Positions 2,718-45,300 of a stretch of DNA of 48,285 bases are shown here, one piece after another. Made by a program: the position numbers and the translations under genes. The notes below the pieces were generated by a model. That model saw only the letters and a program-made list of their open reading frames with translations, was not told where the DNA came from and made no database searches. Position 1 is the first letter of the stretch. Each line of letters opens with the position of its first letter. Origin of the DNA: an uncultured Candidatus Midichloriaceae bacterium (GTDB lineage: Bacteria > Pseudomonadota > Alphaproteobacteria > Rickettsiales > Midichloriaceae); the NCBI GenBank assembly GCA_964547795.1, contig CAZJPD010000001.1, positions 1 to 48,285 of the forward strand, written 5' to 3'.

Positions 2718-3075
2718 GAGTTTGGGCTAGATACAGGGGATTAGAGAAAAAGGTAGAATTTTATGTTTCCGCACTGTTTCCGAAAAATAACTAAGATAGG
2801 GACGCCTTAAAAAGAAAATTGTTTATCTATAAAGATTGATAAAAGGCTTTTTAAGCTTACTAATGGGGTGTTGGGTAAAAGGAAATAAGCTAAAAAAGGG
2901 GCTTCTACAAAATCATTTAATCAATGAATTACAATCCATCTACTATTAGGTTTACATAATCCATGGATAATATAACATTTCATCTATCTCTAGGCAATAT
3001 TTCCAAAATTCTTACCTTTACAGAATGACTTTTTTTGTATATACAATCTATATTAGCTTTAATATATGGTTGCTT

Positions 3076-3528
3076 ATGACAGTAAAAATTAGGTTAGCAA
3101 GATTCGGAGCTAAAAAGAGACCTTGTTATAGAATGGTGGTTGCTAATTCAAATGCATCAAGGGATGGAAAATTTTTAGAAAAGGTTGGGATATATAATCC
3201 AATGCTATCCAAAGAAGACGAAAATAGGGTTGTTCTTAATCAAGATAGGATAAAGCATTGGCTATCAGTCGGTGCACAACCAACAGAGAGGGTAAGTAAG
3301 TTTTTGGAAAAAACAAAAGTTATCAAGATTAAAACCACTATAAAAAGGGGTGTGAGAGCTAAAATCACTACAGATATACCCGCTAAAAAAGAACTCAAAG
3401 AGAAAGACAAGGTAGTTGCAGGTAAGTTTGTTGAGAAGGGGGTTGAAAAGGACAAAGTAGTTGTAGATAAGCCTGTTGAAGAAAAACTGGAGAAAAATAA
3501 AAAAGCAGAAGACGACAAAGATAAATAA
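3076..3528 (+). CDS. rpsP: 30S ribosomal protein S16 with a long Lys/Glu-rich C-terminal extension
   Basis: [25 protein letters not shown]...GIYNP is canonical S16. ATG 3076 was chosen over the track start at 3025. The tail carries a repeated EKDKVV motif. Confidence 0.9.
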
Positions 3529-3567
3529 TTCTACCTATCAAGTAAGCTTGATATTAGAGGTAAGAAA

Positions 3568-4290
3568 ATGTGGTGGGTAAATATCTTGACATTATTTCCT
3601 GAAATATATCCAGGTCCGATACAGTATTCAGTTCATGGCAAAGCGTTAGATGCAAAATTATGGGATATAAAGATCAAAAATATAAGAGACTTTGCTTTTA
3701 ACAAGCATAAAACCATAGATTCCCCACCTTACGGAGGGGGGGGGGGAATGATATTAAGAGCAGATGTTTTGGGTGAAGCAATAGAAAAATTCTTTTTGCC
3801 TAATAGATTTCCCATTATCTATTTGTCCCCTAAAGGTAGATTATTTAACCAAAAAATGGCAAAAATTTTTGTCCAATCAGCCGATGGGATAAATATTTTA
3901 TGTGGACGCTTTGAAGGTATTGATGAGAGAGTAATAAAAGAGTACAAAATAGTTGAAATTAGCATAGGAGACTATATACTATCTTCTGGTGATATAGCTG
4001 CATTAGCTATTATAGATTGCTGTCTAAGGTTGTTACCTAGGTATTTAGGAAATGAAAAGTCGCTGAAAGAAGAGAGTTTTGGAGAAGGTTATTACGAAAA
4101 CCTACTGGAGTATCCGCATTATACCAAACCTGTTGTGTGGAAATCTAATGCAGTGCCTGAGGTATTGATTTCAGGTCACCACGTTAAGGTTGATGAATGG
4201 AGACTGAATAAAGCAAAAGAAGAGACAAGGAATAAGAGACCGGATTTATGGAGCAAATACTTAAATGGAGTTAAAAATGAACTTAGTTGA
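3568..4290 (+). CDS. trmD: tRNA (guanine37-N1)-methyltransferase
   Basis: Motifs LTLFPE, PPYGGGGGM, GRFEGIDERV and SIGDYILSGG-like; follows rpsP as in the conserved operon. Confidence 0.9.
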   Translation: MWWVNILTLFPEIYPGPIQYSVHGKALDAKLWDIKIKNIRDFAFNKHKTIDSPPYGGGGGMILRADVLGEAIEKFFLPNRFPIIYLSPKGRLFNQKMAKIFVQSADGINILCGRFEGIDERVIKEYKIVEISIGDYILSSGDIAALAIIDCCLRLLPRYLGNEKSLKEESFGEGYYENLLEYPHYTKPVVWKSNAVPEVLISGHHVKVDEWRLNKAKEETRNKRPDLWSKYLNGVKNELS

Positions 4291-9536: not shown

Positions 9537-10829
9537 TTAAAACTTAACTTTTGTTCCAACTAAGAACACAGTACCTTTATTAAATTTAAGATTACTAGTA
9601 TTAGGTACAGCAAAGCTTTTATTTTCCTTAAACTTAAATCTGGTTACCTCAACATACGGCATAAATCCTGGCATTACCTGGTAATCTGCACCAACAGATA
9701 TTGCTTCTAATTTATTATACTCTGAAGTACTCTTTGCAGATGTTTCTGCTGTATTTTTATCCTTTCCAAAAATAAAACCAGCTCTTTTGCTTTGCATATA
9801 GTTAATACTAATTCCATACTGACTAGTTGAATACGCAGAGCCTAAAGACCAGTACTTAGCACCATACTTTTTATCAGCCTCCCTACCTTCTTTTTTTGTT
9901 CCTGATTTTCCAAAATCACCATAAGAACCAGCAACTGCAAACCCATTATACTCAACACTTGCACCCACTTGCCATGCAGCTAAATTCTTACGTTTTATAT
10001 TCCCTGCTGGTTTATCTGGTTTACCTTCTTTGTCCTTTTCAGCATCCCAGCTATAATCTTTAGCCTCTGCGAATTCTCCAAGTACAGCTGTTGCAAATTC
10101 AATACCACCATCAAATGTCTTTTCATATCTCACAGCTGGTTGCCATACATTTCTATATCCACCACCACAGTCTTTCAATAATTCTCTCACTTGTTTAGTT
10201 GTACCCTTCCCCTTTGAAGAAGGTGAATAACTTACCCCAAATGAAAAACCATTAATATTAGGACTGAAGTAGTTAATCTTGTTTGCTTTGCTCTCATCAT
10301 CAAACCCAATAGGCAGCTGAGGAGCTGTCAAATACCCATCCTTATAATTCTTACTGCCACTTATCACAGCACCATTTTTGAGCCAGTCATCCCAACCACC
10401 ATCTAAATCACCTGTTGCACGAGCTATTGAATATGAATTTACCTCCATTGCATTCCCTACAGGACTGGTACTACCTAGTTCAACTTCACCAAAATTTCCC
10501 TTAAAATATACCTTAGCCTCTTTTGCAGTCCCCTTAATTTCTTTATCCTTCTCTACATCGGCATTTAGCTTAATAAATGCACCATAACTTGAACCATTAT
10601 CATTTTTCTTATCAATGTCAAATTTCAAGGAATTACTATTAGTCAAGCCATTTTGGTTGTATTTTTTACCACTTTTGTCTTTTTTGAAAGCATCTTCCTG
10701 ATTTATAATTCCGTACTGTGCATCAACACCACCACCAACTTTCACAGTAAAATCACTACCCTTCCCTACAAAAACGGTGATTGGTAGAAAGCTCAATAAA
10801 GAAGCAAAAAGTATGTTTTTATTTTTCAT
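9537..10829 (-). CDS. Outer-membrane porin (beta-barrel)
   Basis: Signal peptide, alternating Gly/aromatic beta-strand pattern, and a C-terminal ...VGTKVKF ending in Phe, as in alphaproteobacterial porins. Confidence 0.7.
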   Translation of the reverse strand: MKNKNILFASLLSFLPITVFVGKGSDFTVKVGGGVDAQYGIINQEDAFKKDKSGKKYNQNGLTNSNSLKFDIDKKNDNGSSYGAFIKLNADVEKDKEIKGTAKEAKVYFKGNFGEVELGSTSPVGNAMEVNSYSIARATGDLDGGWDDWLKNGAVISGSKNYKDGYLTAPQLPIGFDDESKANKINYFSPNINGFSFGVSYSPSSKGKGTTKQVRELLKDCGGGYRNVWQPAVRYEKTFDGGIEFATAVLGEFAEAKDYSWDAEKDKEGKPDKPAGNIKRKNLAAWQVGASVEYNGFAVAGSYGDFGKSGTKKEGREADKKYGAKYWSLGSAYSTSQYGISINYMQSKRAGFIFGKDKNTAETSAKSTSEYNKLEAISVGADYQVMPGFMPYVEVTRFKFKENKSFAVPNTSNLKFNKGTVFLVGTKVKF

Positions 10830-10869
10830 AATACACTAACTAACTTTTTATGTAATACCATGATAATAC

Positions 10870-22048: not shown

Positions 22049-23001
22049 TTAAACAAACCCCCATCTCAATAATAAGTATAGTGTTTTTTCATTTTCATCT
22101 CTCCAGACTATCTGCCCGTTTACATTGTTTCCTAAACAAAAGGATGCAGCAGCACTAGGGCTTGTAAGTATTATGTTCTTTTTTAGTTCAAAATAGGATT
22201 CATGCTCTATACAGAACTCTTCTCTTAAACAAAGTGTTCTATCTTTACCCCTATAAGAAGGGGTTGTTTCTTTACATATTTTTGACCCCTCAAGAATAGT
22301 AAATTCTTTATTTTTACCGTTATAACCCCCCCCCTTGCATAAGTACCTTTTTTTTGCTTTCACAGTAGAAAACATGTTTCTTCTTTCTGCTTGGTGTCTT
22401 GGGTTCACTTCCTTGTAAGGATATGATTTCTTTTAGAGCTTTTTTACTCTTGTTTAATCCTCTTGCATAAGTACCCTTTTTGTTCTTGGAGTAGAAAATG
22501 TGTTCCTCTTTAGAATTTGGTATATCAAAAATCTTATACCCTAATAATGAAGTGAAAAGTTTAACATCTTCAAAAAATTCCTGTAATGAGTGTTTTTTCT
22601 TTTCATTAAGTTGTTTTTCTTCTCTGGGCTGTTGTTTGTTTTCCTCCAAATCAAAGACATTTGCTTTTTTTTGCATCAGTAATTGCCAAGTATTCAAGAT
22701 ACCCTAAGTTTAATTCTTGGGGTTTAAGTGATGAAAAAATCAGAACCTCATCCCAAAAATCTTTTTTATCAAGATCACCCTTCCTGTCTGAAAAGTCCCC
22801 TGTTTGCCCTATATAGAGCCTCTTATTTTCACCAAGCAGAAAGTATAACGATGGAAGCTGCAACGCATCTCCGCTTTTAGCTTTAGTTTCATTCAGCATC
22901 TTTCTTGGTATATGCCAACATTTGATGGGTCTGTTTTCTATGTCCAACCCTATAATACCTGAGCTAGTGTTATTAAAAGGGTAAGCTTGTATGGTTTTCA
23001 T
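22049..23001 (-). pseudogene. GIY-YIG nuclease with C-terminal DUF4357-like domain; reading frame broken three times
   Basis: N-terminal part LYFLLGEN.KRLYIGQTGDFSDR (GIY-YIG). C-terminal part GTYARG...EFTILEGSKI...TSPSAAASFCLGNNVNGQIVWRDENEKTL (DUF4357-like). The three track ORFs are in three frames, and the junctions coincide with T8 (22665..22672), T8 (22348..22355) and C9 (22326..22334) runs. Confidence 0.7.
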
Positions 23002-23047: not shown

Positions 23048-24223
23048 TTAAACCCTCAAACCTTCCTTTATCCTCTTTGTAGCTTCAGTGATTTCTTCCA
23101 TTGTTGGAACTAGTGCGAATCTAACAAAGTTTTTTCCTGGATTGACTCCATTTACTTCATCGCTAACCAATTGACCTGGAGTCACTACAATACCCAACTC
23201 TACTAGAGCACTTGCAAACTCCATGCTATCCATATCTTCTGGCGTCTTCTGCCACAGATAAAAAGTAGCATCACCTTTTGGCTTTTCCAGTCCTTTTGCA
23301 GTAAGGGCATCTATCATCATATCTCGCTTTTTTCTATATTCTTCTCTCATGTTTACAACAAAATCCTCATCTTCAAGTGCAAGTGTTGCAACATCTTGAA
23401 TAAATGTAGGTGTACCAGAATCAATGTTATTCTTAACCTTTTTGAACCCTGATATTATCCTTTCATCACCACAAGCAAATCCAACCCTATAACCAGTCAT
23501 GTTACTACGTTTTGAAAGCGAATAAAAAGCTATAACTCCTTCCTTTTGTATCTCAAATACACTGGTTGGCTTCTTACCAAAATATATATCATTATAACAC
23601 CCCTCATCAGCAGCTATTATGATATTATGGCGATTTGCCCATGATACCAGTTCTTGCAACCATTCTTCAGGTGCTGTAACCCCAGTCGGTGAATTAGGGT
23701 AATTAGTCCATATAATCTTGACTTTATCTGCAACATCACTTGGGATTGATGAAAAATTTATTAAAAAATTATTCTTTTCAAGAAGGGGAGTAAAATACAC
23801 TTCACCTCCTCTAAACCTAGTTCCCAACTTATACAGAGGATAGCTTGGTGTTGGACAAATGACGACATCCCCTGGATTAACAAATCCTATTGGAAAGTTA
23901 AAGATAGCTTCCTTTGAACCAATAGTTGAAACTATTTCTGTATCAGGATTGAGTGCAATTGCATATTCTCTTTGCATATATTTTGCACAAGCCTTGCGAT
24001 AATTAATATCACCAACATAGCTGGGATATCCACTAGTAGCTCTGTTTCTTGCAAATTCTGAGAGATTATCAATGACGAAATCTGGCGTTGGACTTTTCGG
24101 GTCTCCCACACCAAAATCTATTACCTTAATACCCTTGTCTTTCAACTCTTGTACTTTTTTATTTATCTCAACAAACACATACTTGCCTGTACTACTAATT
24201 AGTTTTGAGTAAGTTATTTTCAT
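23048..24223 (-). CDS. dapL: Class-I aminotransferase, probable LL-diaminopimelate aminotransferase (short DapL / DapC-direct type)
   Basis: VIDFGVGDPKSPTP, IGSKEAIFNF, NYPNSPTG and SLSKRSNMTGYRVG (PLP lysine). First neighbour of dapF-dapA-dapB, with no dapD or dapE in the cluster. The function call is contextual. Confidence 0.7.
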   Translation of the reverse strand: MKITYSKLISSTGKYVFVEINKKVQELKDKGIKVIDFGVGDPKSPTPDFVIDNLSEFARNRATSGYPSYVGDINYRKACAKYMQREYAIALNPDTEIVSTIGSKEAIFNFPIGFVNPGDVVICPTPSYPLYKLGTRFRGGEVYFTPLLEKNNFLINFSSIPSDVADKVKIIWTNYPNSPTGVTAPEEWLQELVSWANRHNIIIAADEGCYNDIYFGKKPTSVFEIQKEGVIAFYSLSKRSNMTGYRVGFACGDERIISGFKKVKNNIDSGTPTFIQDVATLALEDEDFVVNMREEYRKKRDMMIDALTAKGLEKPKGDATFYLWQKTPEDMDSMEFASALVELGIVVTPGQLVSDEVNGVNPGKNFVRFALVPTMEEITEATKRIKEGLRV

Positions 24224-24231
24224 GTTTGTTA

Positions 24232-25086
24232 TTACTCCATTAATCTATTTTTCAAATCCTGAGAAAAGCTACCTTTAAAGACCCTAGCAACCTCTCCTGT
24301 TAAATATACATTTTTATCTGTTACTTCAACAGTTACTTTTCCGCCTAGCATGTGTACTGTCACATCCTTATCGACAAGTCCAAGCTTATGTGCAACGCAA
24401 CTTGTTGCTGAACTGCTCGTACCAGATGCTAACGTATATCCAGCACCTCTTTCCCAAACCTCTATCTTGATATTGGATTGATCCAATATCTCTACAATCT
24501 GTACGTTTATTCTATTCGGAAAAAGTTCGTGTACTTCCAATACCGACCCTAATTTTTTCACTAACTCTGCTGTTGCCTTTTCCTTGAAAAGCACACAATG
24601 CGGATTGCCGATGTTAACACAACTTATTTTTTCCGTTTTTCCTAACAGCTCTATTTCTTTGTTTATCACTTCTCCCCCATCCAAAAGCATTGGTATTTTT
24701 TCGGCTAAAAATGAATATCCACCCATATCTACCTTAATCAGATTTTTTTTAGGATCAATCATCTCAACCGATACCTTGCCACCTTTAGTGTATAGGTCAA
24801 AGTGCCTTTTTTCTACATACGATTGATCAAGTGCATATAGTGCAAATATCCTAATTCCATTACCACTTTTTTCTACTTCAGAGCCATCCGGATTGAATAT
24901 CTTAAAACTTATTTTATCTTTATCTATGGTTGGACCGTATAAGATTCCATCAGACCCTACGCCATAGTTTCTATCGCAAATAAGACTGATGTTCTTTTTA
25001 TTTAAGGTTGGGTTGAAAGTAACCTTGTTCAGATCAATTACTAAATAATCATTGCCCAAGCCATGATATTTGTAAAAATCAGCCAT
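24232..25086 (-). CDS. dapF: Diaminopimelate epimerase homolog with Ser at both catalytic Cys positions
   Basis: Full-length similarity to DapF (YHGLGNDYLVID, FNPDGSEVEKSGNGIR, GNPHCV, WERGAGYTLASGTSSS). Codon 74 is AGT (24865..24867) and codon 221 is TCT (24424..24426), where DapF has Cys. Confidence 0.8.
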   Translation of the reverse strand: MADFYKYHGLGNDYLVIDLNKVTFNPTLNKKNISLICDRNYGVGSDGILYGPTIDKDKISFKIFNPDGSEVEKSGNGIRIFALYALDQSYVEKRHFDLYTKGGKVSVEMIDPKKNLIKVDMGGYSFLAEKIPMLLDGGEVINKEIELLGKTEKISCVNIGNPHCVLFKEKATAELVKKLGSVLEVHELFPNRINVQIVEILDQSNIKIEVWERGAGYTLASGTSSSATSCVAHKLGLVDKDVTVHMLGGKVTVEVTDKNVYLTGEVARVFKGSFSQDLKNRLME

Positions 25087-25966
25087 TCATATATTCTTGG
25101 TAGATTTTTATTAATTCACTACGTTCCTTTTCATTCATTCTACATATTGGTAATCTGAACTCTTCCTCTATCATACCTAAATATGCCATTAGGGTTTTTA
25201 CTGGGATCGGATTACTTGCTATGGAAAGAAGTGCTTTCATTAAATCATACAATTTATAATGATATATTTTTGCTATATCAAAATTGCCTGCAGAAACATT
25301 TTGTACAATATATTTCATTTCCTTTGGCAGAATATTTGATATAACTGATACCACTCCATGCCCACCTAAACACATTATAGAATATGTCAGTGCATCATCG
25401 CCTGATAAAACAAAAAAATCTTTATCAACACTCTTAATAACATCCATAATTTGGCACATATCACCACTAGCTTCCTTTACCCCTACTATATTCTTATGTT
25501 TTGCAAGTTTTAGTAATGTCTTGGTTTCAAGATTAACTGCTGTTCTTCCTTTAATGTTATATAGTATTATCGGAATATTAATAGCATCCGCTATTTGCAT
25601 AAAATGCTGATATAAGCCATCTTGTGTTGGTTTATTATAGTATGGATTAACAGTTAATAACGCATCAACACCCAAGTCTTCTGCCTTTTTACTTTTTTCT
25701 ACTGATGACCCAGTGTTGTTAGTACCTGTACCCACCATAATCTTGATTTTGCCATTCGCAGTTTTTACAGCAAATTTTATGATTTCCTCAACTTCCATGC
25801 TACCAATAATCGGACTTCCTCCTGTAGTACCTAAAATAACTACCCCATCTACACCAGCTTCTATTTGTGCATCAATTAATTTTTTAAGTGATGGGTAATC
25901 TATGCTTTTATCACTGTAAAAAGGTGTAACTAAGGCTGTATATAAGCCAGAAAAATTTTTATTCAT
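25079..25966 (-). CDS. dapA: 4-hydroxy-tetrahydrodipicolinate synthase
   Basis: LVTPF, GTTGGS, NPYYNKPTQ.GLYQHF, ILYNIKGRT, VGVKEASG (Schiff-base Lys) and NPIPVK. Confidence 0.85.
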   Translation of the reverse strand: MNKNFSGLYTALVTPFYSDKSIDYPSLKKLIDAQIEAGVDGVVILGTTGGSPIIGSMEVEEIIKFAVKTANGKIKIMVGTGTNNTGSSVEKSKKAEDLGVDALLTVNPYYNKPTQDGLYQHFMQIADAINIPIILYNIKGRTAVNLETKTLLKLAKHKNIVGVKEASGDMCQIMDVIKSVDKDFFVLSGDDALTYSIMCLGGHGVVSVISNILPKEMKYIVQNVSAGNFDIAKIYHYKLYDLMKALLSIASNPIPVKTLMAYLGMIEEEFRLPICRMNEKERSELIKIYQEYMNG

Positions 25967-26691
25967 AAAAGTAGTTCCTCCATATAATCGTTAATACTAA
26001 AAAATCCCTTTTTGTCTTTTATCCACTTAGCACAATTTATCGCTCCTCTTGCATAAGAACTACGCCCTTTAGAATCATGAGAAATTTTGATACTATCCAG
26101 AGAGCTATCAAATACCACTTCGTGCTTACCAATAACATGTCCACCTCTCGTAGAACTAAAGTGAAGCTCATCAGTTTTTATACCCCTATCTACCTTTTCT
26201 GTGATAATATGACGTTTCCTTCCTATATTATCTATGAGAATTTGTGCTGTTGTCAAAGCTGTGCCAGATGGTGAGTCCTTCTTTTTGTTATGGTGGATTT
26301 CATGCCCAAAAACATCATATTCCTCAAATTTATCCATAATACAGGCAGCCTCTTTGACAATTTTCCAGAATATATTGACACCTATTGTAAAATTCGTTGC
26401 GTAAATAAATCCGACATTATTGGTGGCTACTATTTTTTTCACCCTCTCAATATCTTGATACCATCCCGTAGTACCACATGCTATATTAACTCCCTTCGAA
26501 GCAAGTATCTTTATATTTTGTAAACATATAGCAGGCTCTGTAAACTCTATGGCAACTTCATCATTATTAAAATTACTAGCTAGTAAATCATCTTTGTTAT
26601 CGATGGTTTTTGAAACAGAGATACCAAGATTCTGAGCCTCTTGCTCAACCATCTTGCCCATCTTGCCATAGCCTATAATTGCAATTTTCAT
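25963..26691 (-). CDS. dapB: 4-hydroxy-tetrahydrodipicolinate reductase (short form)
   Basis: MKIAIIGYGKMGK Rossmann N-terminus and HEIHHNKKKDSPSGTAL catalytic motif. ATG 26691 is preferred to the track start at 26715. Confidence 0.85.
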   Translation of the reverse strand: MKIAIIGYGKMGKMVEQEAQNLGISVSKTIDNKDDLLASNFNNDEVAIEFTEPAICLQNIKILASKGVNIACGTTGWYQDIERVKKIVATNNVGFIYATNFTIGVNIFWKIVKEAACIMDKFEEYDVFGHEIHHNKKKDSPSGTALTTAQILIDNIGRKRHIITEKVDRGIKTDELHFSSTRGGHVIGKHEVVFDSSLDSIKISHDSKGRSSYARGAINCAKWIKDKKGFFSINDYMEELLL

Positions 26692-26719
26692 TCTAGTATT
26701 CCTTTTATTATGCAAGAGG

Positions 26720-26803
26720 ATTGTATTATTCTAAGTAGCACACTGTCAATACATAAGTATTGTATTATCCTAAGTAGCATACTATCAATACATAAGTATT
26801 GTA
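26720..26803. repeat. 39-bp tandem repeat, 2.15 copies, immediately upstream of dapB
   Basis: Unit 1 is 26720..26758, unit 2 is 26759..26797 (4 mismatches by hand count), and partial unit ATTGTA is 26798..26803. Confidence 0.85.
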
Positions 26804-26990: not shown

Positions 26991-27088
26991 GGTGGAAGCT
27001 AAATAGGGGCAAAGTATTTGCTAACCAGGTCAGATTTGAAAGAAAGCAGCCATAGCAGAAACCTTTGGGTCTTGTTTGCTTCCTTTTT
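26991..27088 (+). ncRNA. ffs: Signal recognition particle RNA (4.5S, small bacterial type)
   Basis: ACCAGGTCAGATTTGAAAGAAAGCAGCCATAGCAGA matches the conserved domain IV of E. coli 4.5S RNA (ACCAGGUCAGGUCCGGAAGGAAGCAGCCAAGGCAGA) with a GNRA loop. A closing helix GGAAGC...GCTTCC is followed by a T-run. The ends are approximate. Confidence 0.75.
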
Positions 27089-27117: not shown

Positions 27118-28194
27118 ATGCTTAACCAATATATTAAAATCAACTTATCGAATATCAGAAAAAATTACTTAAAACTAAAATCTATGTTAGCAAGCGAATC
27201 CGTTGTTTGTTCAGCAGTAGTCAAAGCTAATGCCTATGGCTTAGGGCTCAAGGAGATGGTAGGAGAACTATATCAACAAGGTTGTCGTGATTTTTGGGTA
27301 ACAAATTTGGAAGAAGCTTCCATTGCAAGACAAAATGCAGAATCTGCTTATGTGTATGTATTCCAAGGAGCTAATAGTGAAGAAGAACTAGGGTTTATAG
27401 TTCAAAATAAGTTTATCCCTGTTATTTCAGAAATCAGACAACTAAAAATAGTTAATGATTTTTTACAAAACCATTCTGAACATCCTTTAAATATAATACT
27501 AAATTTTGATACTGGTATGGGGCGTGATGGGTTGCAAGTGGAAGAAATCCCAGAATTAAACTTAAGGCAGTGTAATATCCATTATGTAATGAGTCATCTA
27601 TCTTGTGCTGAAAATAAAAAGCACTTTCTTAATAAGCAACAGCTGATGGCTACCAAATCGCTAAAACAAAATTTTCCTCAAGCAAAAATTACACTTGCAA
27701 ATTCAGGGGGGATATTTTTAGGAAAGGATTATCATTTTAATTTGGTAAGACCAGGGGGGGCATTGTATGGTGTAAATATTTTAAAAGGTAAAGAGAATCC
27801 CATGCTTAATGTTGTGGAATTTAAGGCTAGCATACTAAATCATAAAATCTTTTATAAAAGCCAGTACATTGGCTATGATGCAACCTATAAGGTGAATAAA
27901 GGAGATAAGGTACTAATTTTAAATGTCGGTTATTATGATGGGTATAGAAGAATGCTGGGCAATGGGTCAAGAGTTTATGCAGAAGGGTTTTATTTGCCCG
28001 TAATAGGTGTTATCAGTATGAATGCTATTGCTGTTGATGCAAACCAATTACCAGATAGTTTGTTCTTTAGAATAAAAAATGTTGAACTAATTGGCGAAAA
28101 AATTACCATTGAAGAAATTGCAAAGCTGGCTAATACTGATCAGAGAGAAATTTTAACTAGCCTCTCTTATAGTTGTAAAGGGGTTTATATATAA
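27118..28194 (+). CDS. alr: Alanine racemase
   Basis: AVVKANAYGLG (PLP lysine), typical length, C-terminal beta domain. Confidence 0.85.
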   Translation: MLNQYIKINLSNIRKNYLKLKSMLASESVVCSAVVKANAYGLGLKEMVGELYQQGCRDFWVTNLEEASIARQNAESAYVYVFQGANSEEELGFIVQNKFIPVISEIRQLKIVNDFLQNHSEHPLNIILNFDTGMGRDGLQVEEIPELNLRQCNIHYVMSHLSCAENKKHFLNKQQLMATKSLKQNFPQAKITLANSGGIFLGKDYHFNLVRPGGALYGVNILKGKENPMLNVVEFKASILNHKIFYKSQYIGYDATYKVNKGDKVLILNVGYYDGYRRMLGNGSRVYAEGFYLPVIGVISMNAIAVDANQLPDSLFFRIKNVELIGEKITIEEIAKLANTDQREILTSLSYSCKGVYI

Positions 28195-29848: not shown

Positions 29849-30351
29849 ATGCAAAGTGAAGCTTTAAAAGAACTATTAGAGCAGTATAGAGATGCAAAAT
29901 TGCATGACATAGATGGTGAGTTTCCTGTCCCTGTTGGCAAGATTTGCGAAAGGTTAGGTATAGAGGCTTTTTATGTAAAATTGCCAGATAATATAAGTGG
30001 AAACTTATATAAAGAAGGGGGTAAATATTATATAAAAGCTAATGAGGGGCATCACCCTTATAGAAGAAGATTTACTGTTGCACATGAGTTAGGTCATTAT
30101 CTTAAACATAAGGAATATCTGGATTCTAAGAAGGAAATACTGGAGCGAAGTGATACGATTACACCGAAAGTGAAAGGCAAATGGAAGCAGAAGCTAATAG
30201 ATTTGCAGCTGAGTTATTAATGCCTACAAGGGTTTTTATACAAAAATACCTAAAATCAAATGATTTACAGGAATTAGCAGATTATTTTTTTACTTCCAAA
30301 GATGCTATAAAGTTTAGATTAATAAATTTAGGTTATCGAATTGGGTGTTGA
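29849..30351 (+). pseudogene. ImmA/IrrE-family zinc metallopeptidase (COG2856-like), frameshifted
   Basis: HEXXH as VAHELGHYLKH in the track ORF. The conserved downstream EAEANRFAAELLMP...FRL..LG segment is in another frame (open from 30154 to TGA 30349..30351). The shift lies between 30154 and 30180. Confidence 0.7.
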
Positions 30352-42341: not shown

Positions 42342-45300
42342 TCAACTTTTTTCGTTTTTACCAAATGGATCAAGCTTTTTACCGATCAGTAGTAAGCATG
42401 GCGTGAAAAACAATGTCAAAATTGTAGCAAACGTTAAACCCCCAGCTATTGAGGTTGAAAGTTGCCTCCACCACTGGCTGGAAGGAGCATCGTAAGTGAC
42501 TTCTCTTGTAAAAAAGTTAATGGTAATTCCAAATATCATCGGTGTTAAACCTAAAATGGCAGTTGTTGCTGTTAGCAAAATAGGACGCATTCTTTGAACC
42601 CCTACCCTGACTATAGAATCTCTCACATCATGCCCATTTTTTCTTAAATGCTGATAGGTATCTATAAATAATATGTTATTGTTCAACACTATACCAGATA
42701 AAGCGATGATACCTATACCACACATTACCACACCAAACGGTTGCAATGTAACGATTAATCTAATCAGTACACCTACTGTAGATAGGAATACTGCACTCAT
42801 TACAACTATGGTATGGTAAAACGAGTTAAACTGAACTAGTATTACAACAAACATCATAAGAAAAGCTAAAGAAAAAGCTTTGATTAAAAAAATTGCTGCC
42901 TTTTTTTGATCTTGGCTTTCTCCCTTAAATTTGTATGTTATACCTTTCTCAACATTTTTCTCAAGCCACTCCCTCATTTTATTTACCTTATCACTAGCCA
43001 ATATTCCTTCCTGGACATCTGCTTTTATTGTTATTACGTTTTTTCTATCAACTCTATCTATTCTACCAACCTTGTCTGTTGCTCTTTTTCTTGCGAAATT
43101 GGTAAAAGGTATAGCTTGACGATCATTGTTTACTATTTTTAATTTTTCTACCCCAGTAGTTTTTCTGTATTCTGGTTTAAATCTTAATACTATATCAACT
43201 TCATCATCTGTGTAATCTGGTCTAAAGCTTGACACCTTAACCCCATCAGTTAATAAACTAAGATTATGACCTATTTCTCCCGCACTTAACTTAAACATTC
43301 CCATTAATCCCCCTTGTCAATATCGACAATCCAATCAATACCTGGAAGAGGAGAAGAATCCCCTACATCCTTAAATCCCCCCCATCTCATCCATAGCCTT
43401 TCTAACCTTTTTTACAAAAGCTGGAACTTGTTTAAAATCTCTGGAAGCAAAGTTAATTGTTATAGGCTTTGTTTGTGAGGGACCAGATTTTGCTGATAAA
43501 ATCTCTACCTCTATACCATCAATTTCAGCAACCCTTTTCTTCATATCTGTAAAAATCACCCCTGCTTTTCTTCTAGTTTTCCAATCTACCAGTTCTAGCT
43601 CAATCACGCCTATAGTGCTTTTCGGTAAGAAATTACTCTTTTCAAAATTTCCACTCTTTGAGTAAAATACATCCACATCTGATGTCATATCTATAATTCT
43701 TTTTTCAACGGATTTAGTAACCTTGTCTTTTTCTGCAAGAGATAAGTTGCCACTGGATTTTATGACTAACATAGCACTTTCAGGTTCAATTTTGGGAAAA
43801 AATTCTACACCTGTCCCTGAAAAAACAAAAAATCCATATACTACTACCAAAATACCACACCCATATAGAACAAATGTTTTTGGCTTGTTTAATGTCTTTT
43901 CAAGTAGATAATAGTATTATTTTGCCATTCCCTTTAAATCTTCAATATTTCCTTCTTCCGCTGCTTTCATCGCCTTTACTGTACTAGCACCAATTTTTTT
44001 AGGCTTGCCAAATAATACACCAATGGAAGGTTGAAAGAATAACGCAAATATCAATGAGTTTGTAAGGATTGTTATCACTGTTATTGGCATATATTTCATG
44101 AATTTCCCTATTAATTCTGGCCAAAACAGTAGCGGAAGGAATACCAATATTTTAACAAGAGTAGAGGTAACTATTGGCCGAAACATTCTAGTAGCTGAGT
44201 CTATAAATGCTTCTTTTAGATCCATTCCTTCAATGATTTTTCTATCAGCATATTCACTTACTACTATTACATCATCTACTATCATCCCAACTGTTAATAT
44301 CAAGCTGAATAACACAACGATGTTTAATGTATAACCTGATACCTCCAGGACCAATATACCTACTAAAAAAGCAGAAGGTATAGAAAGTCCAACCAATAAA
44401 GTAAATCTTCCACCTACAGACAGTACCACCACTATGCTGACTAAAATAACAGCAAGTAAAATGCCATTTTCCAAGTCATCCACTACATCTATGATTCTTT
44501 GTGAAGCATCTTGTGCGTAAATAATGTTTAGATTATCTGGCAGAAATTTTTGTTCGGCTTTTATTACCTCCTTCACTTCGCTTACTGTAGAAATTATATT
44601 TGCACCTGTCCTCTTTGTCACTTCAAGTACTACTGTGGATTTACCATTAACCCTTGCTATATATCCTGGGTCTTTATAGGTTTTTTTGATTTCAGCTATA
44701 TCTTTTAATTTTATTACAGTGTTATTGTGGGTGAGAATAGGGAAATCATATAAATCCTCCGCTGTTTCTATAGTAGCTGGTAGCTTTACGGAAAATGTAC
44801 CCCCTTCGTTTTTAACTTTCCCAACAGCAATTAGCTTATTATTTTTGGCAATCATCTGTGAAAGCTGAGTTAAACTCAAGTTGTAGAATTCCAAAGTCTT
44901 TGGATTTACTAAAATCTCAACCACATCTTCACGATCTCCACCTATGCTAACACTTAAAACATCATGTACAATTTCTATTTTATCCCCCAATTCACGTGCT
45001 ATTTTGATTAAACTTCTCTCTGGAATATCTCCCATTAATATTACATTAAGAACAGGTAACAGACTTAAATTAATCTCTTTAACTGTGGGTTTATCAGTAC
45101 CTTCAGGCAGTTCATGTTCTGTATCATCAACCTTTGCTCTTATGTCGCTTAGTGCTTTATCAGTATCAAATCCTACATAGAATTCCGTTACTATTACACC
45201 ACCTCCTTCATAGGCATAAGACCTTAATTCTTTAATTCCAGATACTGATCTAAACGCCGATTCCATCGGCTTTAATAACAATTTTGTGAGTCCTCAGGAG

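Follow-up and report, generated by a model that had tools for sequence, protein, structure and literature searches.

The 48,285-nt contig CAZJPD010000001.1 of an uncultured Candidatus Midichloriaceae bacterium (called here, at its full length, the window) encodes a 284-aa homolog of the diaminopimelate (DAP) epimerase DapF in which serine occupies both positions of the catalytic cysteine pair. Our comparisons of homologs indicate that this Ser/Ser pair is the fixed ancestral state of a large, old, widespread and monophyletic DapF subfamily. The window protein is probably a functional, thiol-free DapF variant that still makes meso-DAP, and it most likely serves as the epimerase step of the translationally coupled dapB-dapA-dapF-dapL operon in which its gene lies. 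The gene and the codons discussed below are the following.

24232..25086, minus strand: dapF homolog of the Ser/Ser subfamily, 284 aa (open reading frame, TIGR00652 and PF01678 matches, AlphaFold2 and Foldseek fold)
24865..24867, minus strand: AGT codon, Ser74, at the position of catalytic Cys73 of E. coli and H. influenzae DapF (alignments)
24424..24426, minus strand: TCT codon, Ser221, at the position of catalytic Cys217 (alignments)
24868..24870, minus strand: AAA codon, Lys73, a clade-specific basic residue directly before Ser74 (column counts)
24415..24417, minus strand: AGC codon, Ser224, clade-specific, one helical turn past Ser221 (column counts)
24436..24438, minus strand: TAT codon, Tyr217, mostly specific to Ser/Ser proteins (column counts)

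A DapF homolog with serine at both catalytic positions

The original prediction, made from the letters of the window, was that this open reading frame (ORF) is collinear with E. coli DapF, and that both catalytic cysteines are replaced by serine. The two peptides that it quoted, FNPDGSEVEKSGNGIRIF and WERGAGYTLASGTSSS, are correct, and we checked the minus-strand codons: residue 74 is AGT (24867..24865) and residue 221 is TCT (24426..24424). Collinearity is borne out by the alignment with E. coli DapF and by a full-length match to TIGR00652 (245.9 bits, cutoff 114.65; residues 3-274 on model positions 2-268); the PF01678 match (178 bits) takes in both domains. The serine replacements were confirmed by hidden Markov model, phmmer, MAFFT and AlphaFold2/Foldseek checks. 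In phmmer alignments with solved DapFs (9mro of Anabaena, 3ejx of Arabidopsis, 5ha4 of A. baumannii and 8qzy of P. aeruginosa), Ser74 lines up with the Cys of ..CGNG.. and Ser221 with that of ..ACGTGA.., the flanks being conserved and ungapped, and a MAFFT alignment with E. coli DapF gives both serines the same placement.

In the AlphaFold2 model, built on 59 homologs with a mean pLDDT (predicted local distance difference test) of 93.8, Ser74 N-caps helix 75-87 and Ser221 N-caps helix 222-234, an arrangement that is canonical for DapF. The best Foldseek match was again 9mro (TM-score 0.88), and DapF structures overall scored 0.82-0.88, with an E-value of 1e-30 and identity of 33-37%. Other DapF-fold families (PhzF, proline racemase/hydroxyproline epimerase, HisR) came no closer in the Foldseek search (E-values of at least 1e-13, TM-score 0.6-0.7, identity 10-18%), and the window protein scored 70 bits, under the cutoff of 350, on the model NF038284 for the chlamydial bifunctional DapF/glutamate racemase. 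Because the phmmer, MAFFT and structure-based placements concur, real cysteines hidden by misalignment are ruled out: Ser74 and Ser221 fill both columns, and the catalytic thiol/thiolate pair is missing from this DapF. The PROSITE signature for DapF requires the Cys, in N-x-D-G-S-x(4)-C-G-N. Sequence, fold, binding site and context all place the window protein in the DapF family, yet it lacks the catalytic pair that defines the family.

Ser/Ser is the ancestral state of a large DapF subfamily

The same two serines are found in all 120 of the closest database homologs, which range from 52 to 94% identity and come from independent assemblies; these include Candidatus Bandiella, other Midichloriaceae, Desulfosporosinus orientis, Pelosinus, Chroococcidiopsis thermalis and an Omnitrophota metagenome-assembled genome (MAG). 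To look further out we used 1.84 billion 50%-identity cluster representatives; among the best 150, the pair was Ser/Ser in 116, Cys/Cys in 28 and mixed or other in 7. When both catalytic motifs were masked, a neighbor-joining tree placed 115 of the 116 Ser/Ser proteins, together with the mixed ones, in one clade that held zero Cys/Cys members. A scan of one genome per GTDB species yielded at least 600 matching stretches, and of the 600 stretches among the matches listed, 592 encode a relative. The 80 loci that we kept span Bacillota, Planctomycetota, Verrucomicrobiota, Spirochaetota, Cyanobacteria, Bacteroidota, Chloroflexota, Acidobacteriota, Nitrospirota and others.

Codon usage bears on the age of the change and on its maintenance. 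Of 87 aligned clade genes, 85 have AGC or AGT as codon 74; codon 221 is TCN, with all four third bases represented, in 76 of 89 (AGY in another 10). Serine is held, under purifying selection, while its codons drift synonymously across the 89 genes; since each codon class is one step from TGY, a single ancient Cys-to-Ser change per site fits. The original prediction leaned towards a lesion or an inactive protein, and that lean finds no support in a pair that is fixed, ancestral and under purifying selection throughout a large monophyletic subfamily, nor in the repeated linkage or fusion of this subfamily to DapL, which makes LL-DAP, or to LysA and MurE, which use meso-DAP.

Cys/Ser, Ser/Cys, Thr/Cys and Ser/Thr pairs occur inside the Ser/Ser clade (50%-identity representatives P0148, P0152, P0226, P0210 and P0178). 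These members may be revertants or intermediates, and their sporadic occurrence suggests that Ser and Cys types are interchangeable at these positions.

Residues around the two serines

Apart from the pair itself, the DapF active site is intact, as had been predicted. In H. influenzae DapF the DAP-binding and catalytic-support roles are, we take it, those of the residues that in E. coli numbering are N11, N64, G74, N75, N157, H159, N190, E208, R209, G218 and S/T219. All are present in the window protein (as N12, N65, G75, N76, N161, H163, N194, E212, R213, G222 and S/T223), and each is at least 95% conserved among 115 Ser/Ser representatives.

The clade-specific changes, at residues 73, 80, 196, 217, 224 and 225, cluster about both serines. 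Residue 73 is Lys in 87 and Arg in 13 of the 115 Ser/Ser representatives; Cys/Cys enzymes have Met or Gln there, with Met in 25 of 28. At residue 80 the Ser/Ser clade has Ile in place of the conserved Cys79 of the canonical GNG-x-RC motif, and at residue 196 it has Gln where Cys/Cys enzymes have Glu. Residue 217 is Tyr in 90/115 Ser/Ser representatives and Glu in 19/28 Cys/Cys representatives; residue 224 is Ser in 106/115 and Gly in 28/28, respectively; and residue 225, which is Ala in Cys/Cys enzymes, is often Ser in the clade.

A substitute base was also considered among the remaining cysteines, and the suggestion that Cys230, Cys156 or Cys164 has been recruited now looks unlikely, none of them being specific to the Ser/Ser clade. 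C37 and C164 are as conserved in Cys/Cys relatives as in the clade, while C156 and C230 are unconserved (Cys in 40/115 and 10/115 Ser/Ser representatives, respectively), which makes another cysteine implausible in this role.

The dap operon of the window

The dapF homolog is the third of four tightly packed genes in the order dapB-dapA-dapF-aminotransferase; the rows below give its three partners, the nearby alanine racemase gene and an upstream site.

25963..26715, minus strand: dapB, reductase (TIGR00036, 164.7 bits, cutoff 122); 4-nt overlap with the dapA start
25079..25966, minus strand: dapA, 4-hydroxy-tetrahydrodipicolinate synthase (TIGR00674, 341 bits, cutoff 206); its last 8 nt are shared with the start of dapF
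23048..24223, minus strand: class I/II aminotransferase, probable LL-DAP aminotransferase (DapL); starts 8 nt past the dapF stop
27118..28194, divergent to the operon: alr (alanine racemase equivalog, 208 bits, cutoff 168)
26720..26749, minus strand: promoter-like site TTGACA-18-TACAAT upstream of dapB, within a 39-bp tandem repeat (consensus match only)

The operon had been described as dapB-dapA-dapF-dapL. That it is a DAP operon stands, with dapA and dapB above their cutoffs; the dapL assignment stands less firmly, since the best NCBIfam matches of the aminotransferase are indeed DapL models, but fall below cutoff (NF006756, 411 bits against 507; TIGR03540, 398 against 593). Its position in the operon fits DapL, which makes this the probable identity. 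Peptidoglycan is evidently made, since the window also encodes MurB, Ddl and Alr.

As called, the dapB ORF starts at TTG 26715, 5 nt past the best -10 hexamer. Translation more likely begins at ATG 26691 (MKIAIIGYGKMG), which would give 242 aa, and orthologs have 242-243 aa. The tandem repeat (26720-26803, 2.2 copies of 39 bp, 93% match) lies directly upstream of dapB, and each copy bears a TTGAxA-18-TACAAT promoter-like pair, with matches at 26749, 26788 and 26827 on the minus strand. An Rfam search of the window found no lysine riboswitch upstream of the operon, and gave only tRNAs and the bacterial small signal recognition particle RNA, the latter in the divergent dapB/alr intergenic region (26992-27088, plus strand; 46.7 bits, gathering score 40). 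Recent horizontal insertion of the operon was also considered and dropped, there being no compositional signal for it (GC content of 35.1% in the operon and 33.8% in the window).

Three other places in the window may hold decayed genes. The stretch from tRNA-Phe to the aminotransferase gene holds three ORFs that overlap (22049-23001, minus strand; 116-125 aa each), a possible decayed gene or mobile-element remnant; the two that were scanned, 22320-22697 and 22651-23001, gave no Pfam match. A series of ORFs of 454, 159 and 320 aa (42342-45281, minus strand) covers successive parts of one AcrB/AcrD/AcrF profile and looks like a fragmented acrB-type pseudogene. A small Peptidase_M78 (ImmA/IrrE-like) ORF after mlaE/mlaF-like ABC genes (29849-30220, plus strand) may be the remnant of a toxin-antitoxin or prophage module.

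Gene linkage and fusions in relatives and other phyla

The four-gene order, with a Ser/Ser dapF, is also found in Bandiella euplotis, a second Bandiella chromosome and a Rickettsiales MAG, where the flanks differ; complete Midichloriaceae genomes with the operon include CP110820.1 (B. euplotis) and OZ245923.1. Gene order that includes the aminotransferase recurs at five loci (L005, L007, L009, L010 and L012). Two of these, L009 and L010, are contigs of low-GC intracellular-type bacteria, one of which carries ATP/ADP translocase genes, and both have a true lysA (385 and 365 bits, cutoff 298) together with lysC, divergent and beside the dap cluster. That cluster is dapB-dapA-dapF-aminotransferase in L009 and dapB-dapF-aminotransferase in L010, with no dapA called there. 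Epimerization is the only step left for the Ser/Ser gene in these two clusters, so the gene fills the DapF slot. Midichloria mitochondrii has been reported to be without dapB and dapF (PMC6879607), which makes it less likely that the family keeps a conserved Cys/Cys dapF as a separate gene.

Fusions tie Ser/Ser DapF to consumers of meso-DAP. DapF-LysA fusions form three independent clusters, of which two score 360 and 410 bits on the NCBIfam model TIGR01048 and the third has just a partial decarboxylase domain by Pfam. Another Ser/Ser DapF is fused to a DAP-adding MurE (TIGR01085, 451 bits), and two clusters hold fusions with alanine racemase (Alr). The multidomain Ser/Ser DapF proteins are P0126, P0151, P0153, P0156, P0173, P0177, P0188, P0214 and P0240; further fusion partners seen are a gamma-glutamyl cyclotransferase-like domain, a GNAT fragment and a GntC/VioD-like aminotransferase.

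Adjacent genes give a similar picture in five further phyla. DapL adjoins the Ser/Ser gene in a proteobacterial MAG (TIGR03542, 546 bits, cutoff 365) and in an Ignavibacteriota MAG (NF004937, 644 bits, cutoff 585), dapA-dapB in a Verrucomicrobia MAG, and LysA in Holophaga and Ruminiclostridium; Alr lies on both sides of the gene in a spirochaete, and Ddl adjoins it in Lacrimispora. Unbiased neighbor clustering of the 80 loci found no universal partner; its two largest clusters were set aside as artefacts of antisense ORFs within dapF itself.

Some genomes have Ser/Ser genes in other company. Free-living carriers include Desulfosporosinus orientis DSM 765, Chroococcidiopsis thermalis PCC 7203 and Lacrimispora amygdalina. 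Chroococcidiopsis thermalis (CP003597.1, locus L001) has two Ser/Ser paralogs 10 kb apart, at 426-1286 on the minus strand and 10001-10849 on the plus strand, with transketolase genes near one and cupin and glutaminase genes near the other. In five planctomycete loci (L018, L030, L031, L035 and L043, of Pirellulales or Sedimentisphaerales) a GNAT acetyltransferase lies near the Ser/Ser gene; a nearby gene, judged by its sequence alone, looks PhzF-like, which would place two DapF-fold genes together.

Discussion

We infer epimerase activity, and proton transfer by the serines, from comparative genomics, with the sequence state, conservation, fold, binding residues and linkage as the observations. 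A functional variant that makes meso-DAP seems the most economical explanation, because both serines stay invariant where the catalytic pair normally lies, the pocket has not changed, and genomic links repeatedly join the gene to producers of the presumed substrate and consumers of the presumed product. By the mechanism that we propose, LL-DAP would bind the unchanged DapF pocket, and the two serine hydroxyls, at the N-termini of facing helices, would assume the acid/base roles of the thiol/thiolate pair. The retained His163 and Glu212 would assist the serines, as would the clade-specific Lys73, Ser224/Ser225, Tyr217, Gln196 and Ile80. The meso-DAP so formed would supply MurE, and also LysA where it is encoded. 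The thiol-free chemistry could be carried out by a helix-capped serine hydroxyl/alkoxide pair, or by a water or His-Glu relay that the serines arrange. Beyond this, we put forward a larger claim, in which our confidence stops a little short of even: that a large natural clade runs the 1,1-proton transfer of DapF free of thiols and of any cofactor, and that Midichloriaceae, among other lineages, have no DAP epimerase besides it.

Several points weigh against a thiol-free epimerase. First, a serine hydroxyl is a poor acid/base unless activated. Second, when a catalytic Cys of a DapF-fold racemase is engineered to Ser, the enzyme becomes far slower, and such mutants have been used to trap inactive open forms (PMC11602996, PMC12039745). 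Third, we found no published enzymology or assay of a natural Ser/Ser DapF in the literature; the original prediction had held that no characterized DapF works with Ser/Ser, and so it appears, the pair being the normal state of a big clade for which we found no biochemical characterization. Fourth, the Lys73 column gives less help than it might: Lys or Arg occurs there in 100/115 Ser/Ser representatives, so that Lys73 cannot be an obligatory catalytic partner, and the 15 that have neither rule it out as a required base or pyridoxal phosphate (PLP)-binding lysine. Fifth, three Lachnospiraceae members of the clade, Faecalicatena among them, are Ser/Asn (L060, ~10001-10828; L063, ~2854-3681; L075, ~10001-10828), with Asn at the second catalytic position in the motif GYTMANGTGA, which hints that some branches no longer need the second acid/base. 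Sixth, DAP genes are absent nearby in most of the 80 loci and in most free-living genomes; the commonest neighbors are an AraC-type regulator (16 loci, mainly Lachnospiraceae) and GNAT (Pirellulales, Desulfosporosinus), so that some clade members may be paralogs with a different role.

As to the chemistry, the co-evolved residues beside the serines may compensate for the lost thiols. E. coli tolerates loss of dapF, its growth being attributed to a low-efficiency alternative racemase (bioRxiv 10.1101/2024.10.14.618325), and since it survives in this way, a slow enzyme may suffice.

The same observations can be turned to a different explanation, which we regard as unlikely: that the protein is a dead or near-dead DAP-binding scaffold, carrier or regulator, with epimerization left to another enzyme, such as the Alr at 27118..28194, or to none. 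In a version covered by the same low estimate, LL-DAP enters peptidoglycan and lysine comes from the host; LL-DAP may, as first suggested, reach MurE in this bacterium. The slowness of the engineered mutants and the growth of E. coli dapF mutants speak for such a substitution, as does the precedent of staphylococcal DapF2, a PLP-dependent DAP epimerase of the Alr family (PMC9026213; bioRxiv 10.1101/2024.10.14.618325). Fusions of Alr with Ser/Ser DapF and Alr neighbors do occur, and in the window alr adjoins the operon, divergently. However, the operon is found without an adjacent Alr in L005, L007, L009 and L010, and the window Alr passes the alanine racemase equivalog cutoff (208 against 168) and is needed for Ddl. 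A dead enzyme is seldom kept in a tightly coupled operon of a reduced genome. Serines that stay invariant over more than 100 divergent clusters, through synonymous drift, are what is expected of catalytic rather than merely structural residues, and the LysA and MurE fusions argue that meso-DAP is the product.

Little credence, too, goes to the idea of a neofunctionalized clade that binds DAP or an analogue and carries out another reaction, such as one-base elimination or dehydration, isomerization, or racemization of another amino acid. In the proline-racemase superfamily, Cys replacement switches an epimerase to a dehydratase, and the Cys/Thr trans-3-hydroxyproline dehydratases are a precedent. 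The Thr/Cys aspartate/glutamate racemase EcL-DER (PMC8142540) and the second activity of chlamydial DapF (PMC5885031) point the same way, as do the mixed contexts in free-living bacteria (AraC, GNAT, PhzF-like), the tandem Chroococcidiopsis paralogs, the Ser/Asn members and the fusion with a GntC/VioD-like aminotransferase. Yet every DAP-specific binding residue that we listed is kept, the epimerase is the only missing step in Midichloriaceae-type clusters, and linkage to DapL, LysA, MurE and DapA/B recurs in several phyla.

Finally, a private loss of function, pseudogene, or sequencing or assembly error in this genome, which the single substitution separating each serine codon from TGT might suggest, is excluded for practical purposes by the 120/120 homologs that share Ser/Ser, and is further opposed by the intact, full-length ORF with its high-confidence predicted fold and by the correlated clade-specific changes flanking both sites.

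A thiol-free DapF variant has several partial parallels among known systems. Canonical DapF (EC 5.1.1.7; E. coli, H. influenzae, Anabaena 9mro, Arabidopsis 3ejx) is like the window protein in its TIGR00652/PF01678 membership, two-domain pseudo-symmetric fold, DAP-binding residues, catalytic positions at helix N-termini and pathway context, but at 33-37% identity the window protein has hydroxyls in place of both thiols, together with K73, Q196, Y217, S224 and S225. Serine at a catalytic position of the same fold is also seen in H. influenzae DapF C73S and C217S (PDB 2Q9H and 2Q9J) and in HisR C67S/C209S; these are single laboratory substitutions that cripple turnover (PMC11602996), whereas in the window protein both serines are natural, have co-evolved neighbors and are under long-term selection.

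More distant enzymes, of the DapF fold and of the Asp/Glu racemases, depart from the cysteine pair as well. Hydroxyproline dehydratase and PhzF are distant Foldseek matches of the window protein, at TM-scores of 0.6-0.7. The non-Cys catalytic residues, as we understand them, are the Thr of the Cys/Thr trans-3-hydroxy-L-proline dehydratase, Glu in PhzF and Lys in PrpF. In these three and in EcL-DER (PMC8142540), replacement of a catalytic Cys accompanies altered chemistry; unlike the window protein, they show only 10-18% identity, act on other substrates and are without the DAP-binding residues, and none is known to be Ser/Ser.

Staphylococcal DapF2 is a non-canonical answer to the same step that was found by genome context and confirmed by complementation. 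It is a PLP-dependent protein of unrelated fold, a non-orthologous displacement, whereas the window protein is a variant of DapF. The chlamydial bifunctional DapF (NF038284) resembles the window protein in its obligate intracellular source organism and DapL pathway, but keeps both cysteines (C72 and C207; PMC5885031).

In the literature that we covered, which is incomplete, so that earlier notice is possible, no natural Ser/Ser DapF is described, just Cys/Cys DapFs and laboratory Ser mutants, and our phmmer and Foldseek matches include no PDB entry for one. The Ser/Ser branch of the DapF family is thus large and apparently unstudied; its proteins are all automatically named "diaminopimelate epimerase", with the absence of the catalytic residues unflagged. 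The two-cysteine mechanism is regarded as defining for DapF and for all DapF-fold racemases. A widespread Ser/Ser branch, encoded within lysine operons and with LysA and MurE as fusion partners, would mean one of two things: the two-Cys rule falls, or the branch is a non-enzyme linked to the pathway. Inhibition of DapF by aziridino-DAP or by thiol reagents works through the cysteines, and Ser/Ser enzymes may be intrinsically resistant: if the thiol-free reading is true, they would be insensitive to oxidation, iodoacetamide and aziridine-DAP, the chemistry that defines the known enzymes. For the Midichloriaceae endosymbiont, the activity of its Ser/Ser protein would decide whether meso-DAP or LL-DAP is available to its peptidoglycan.

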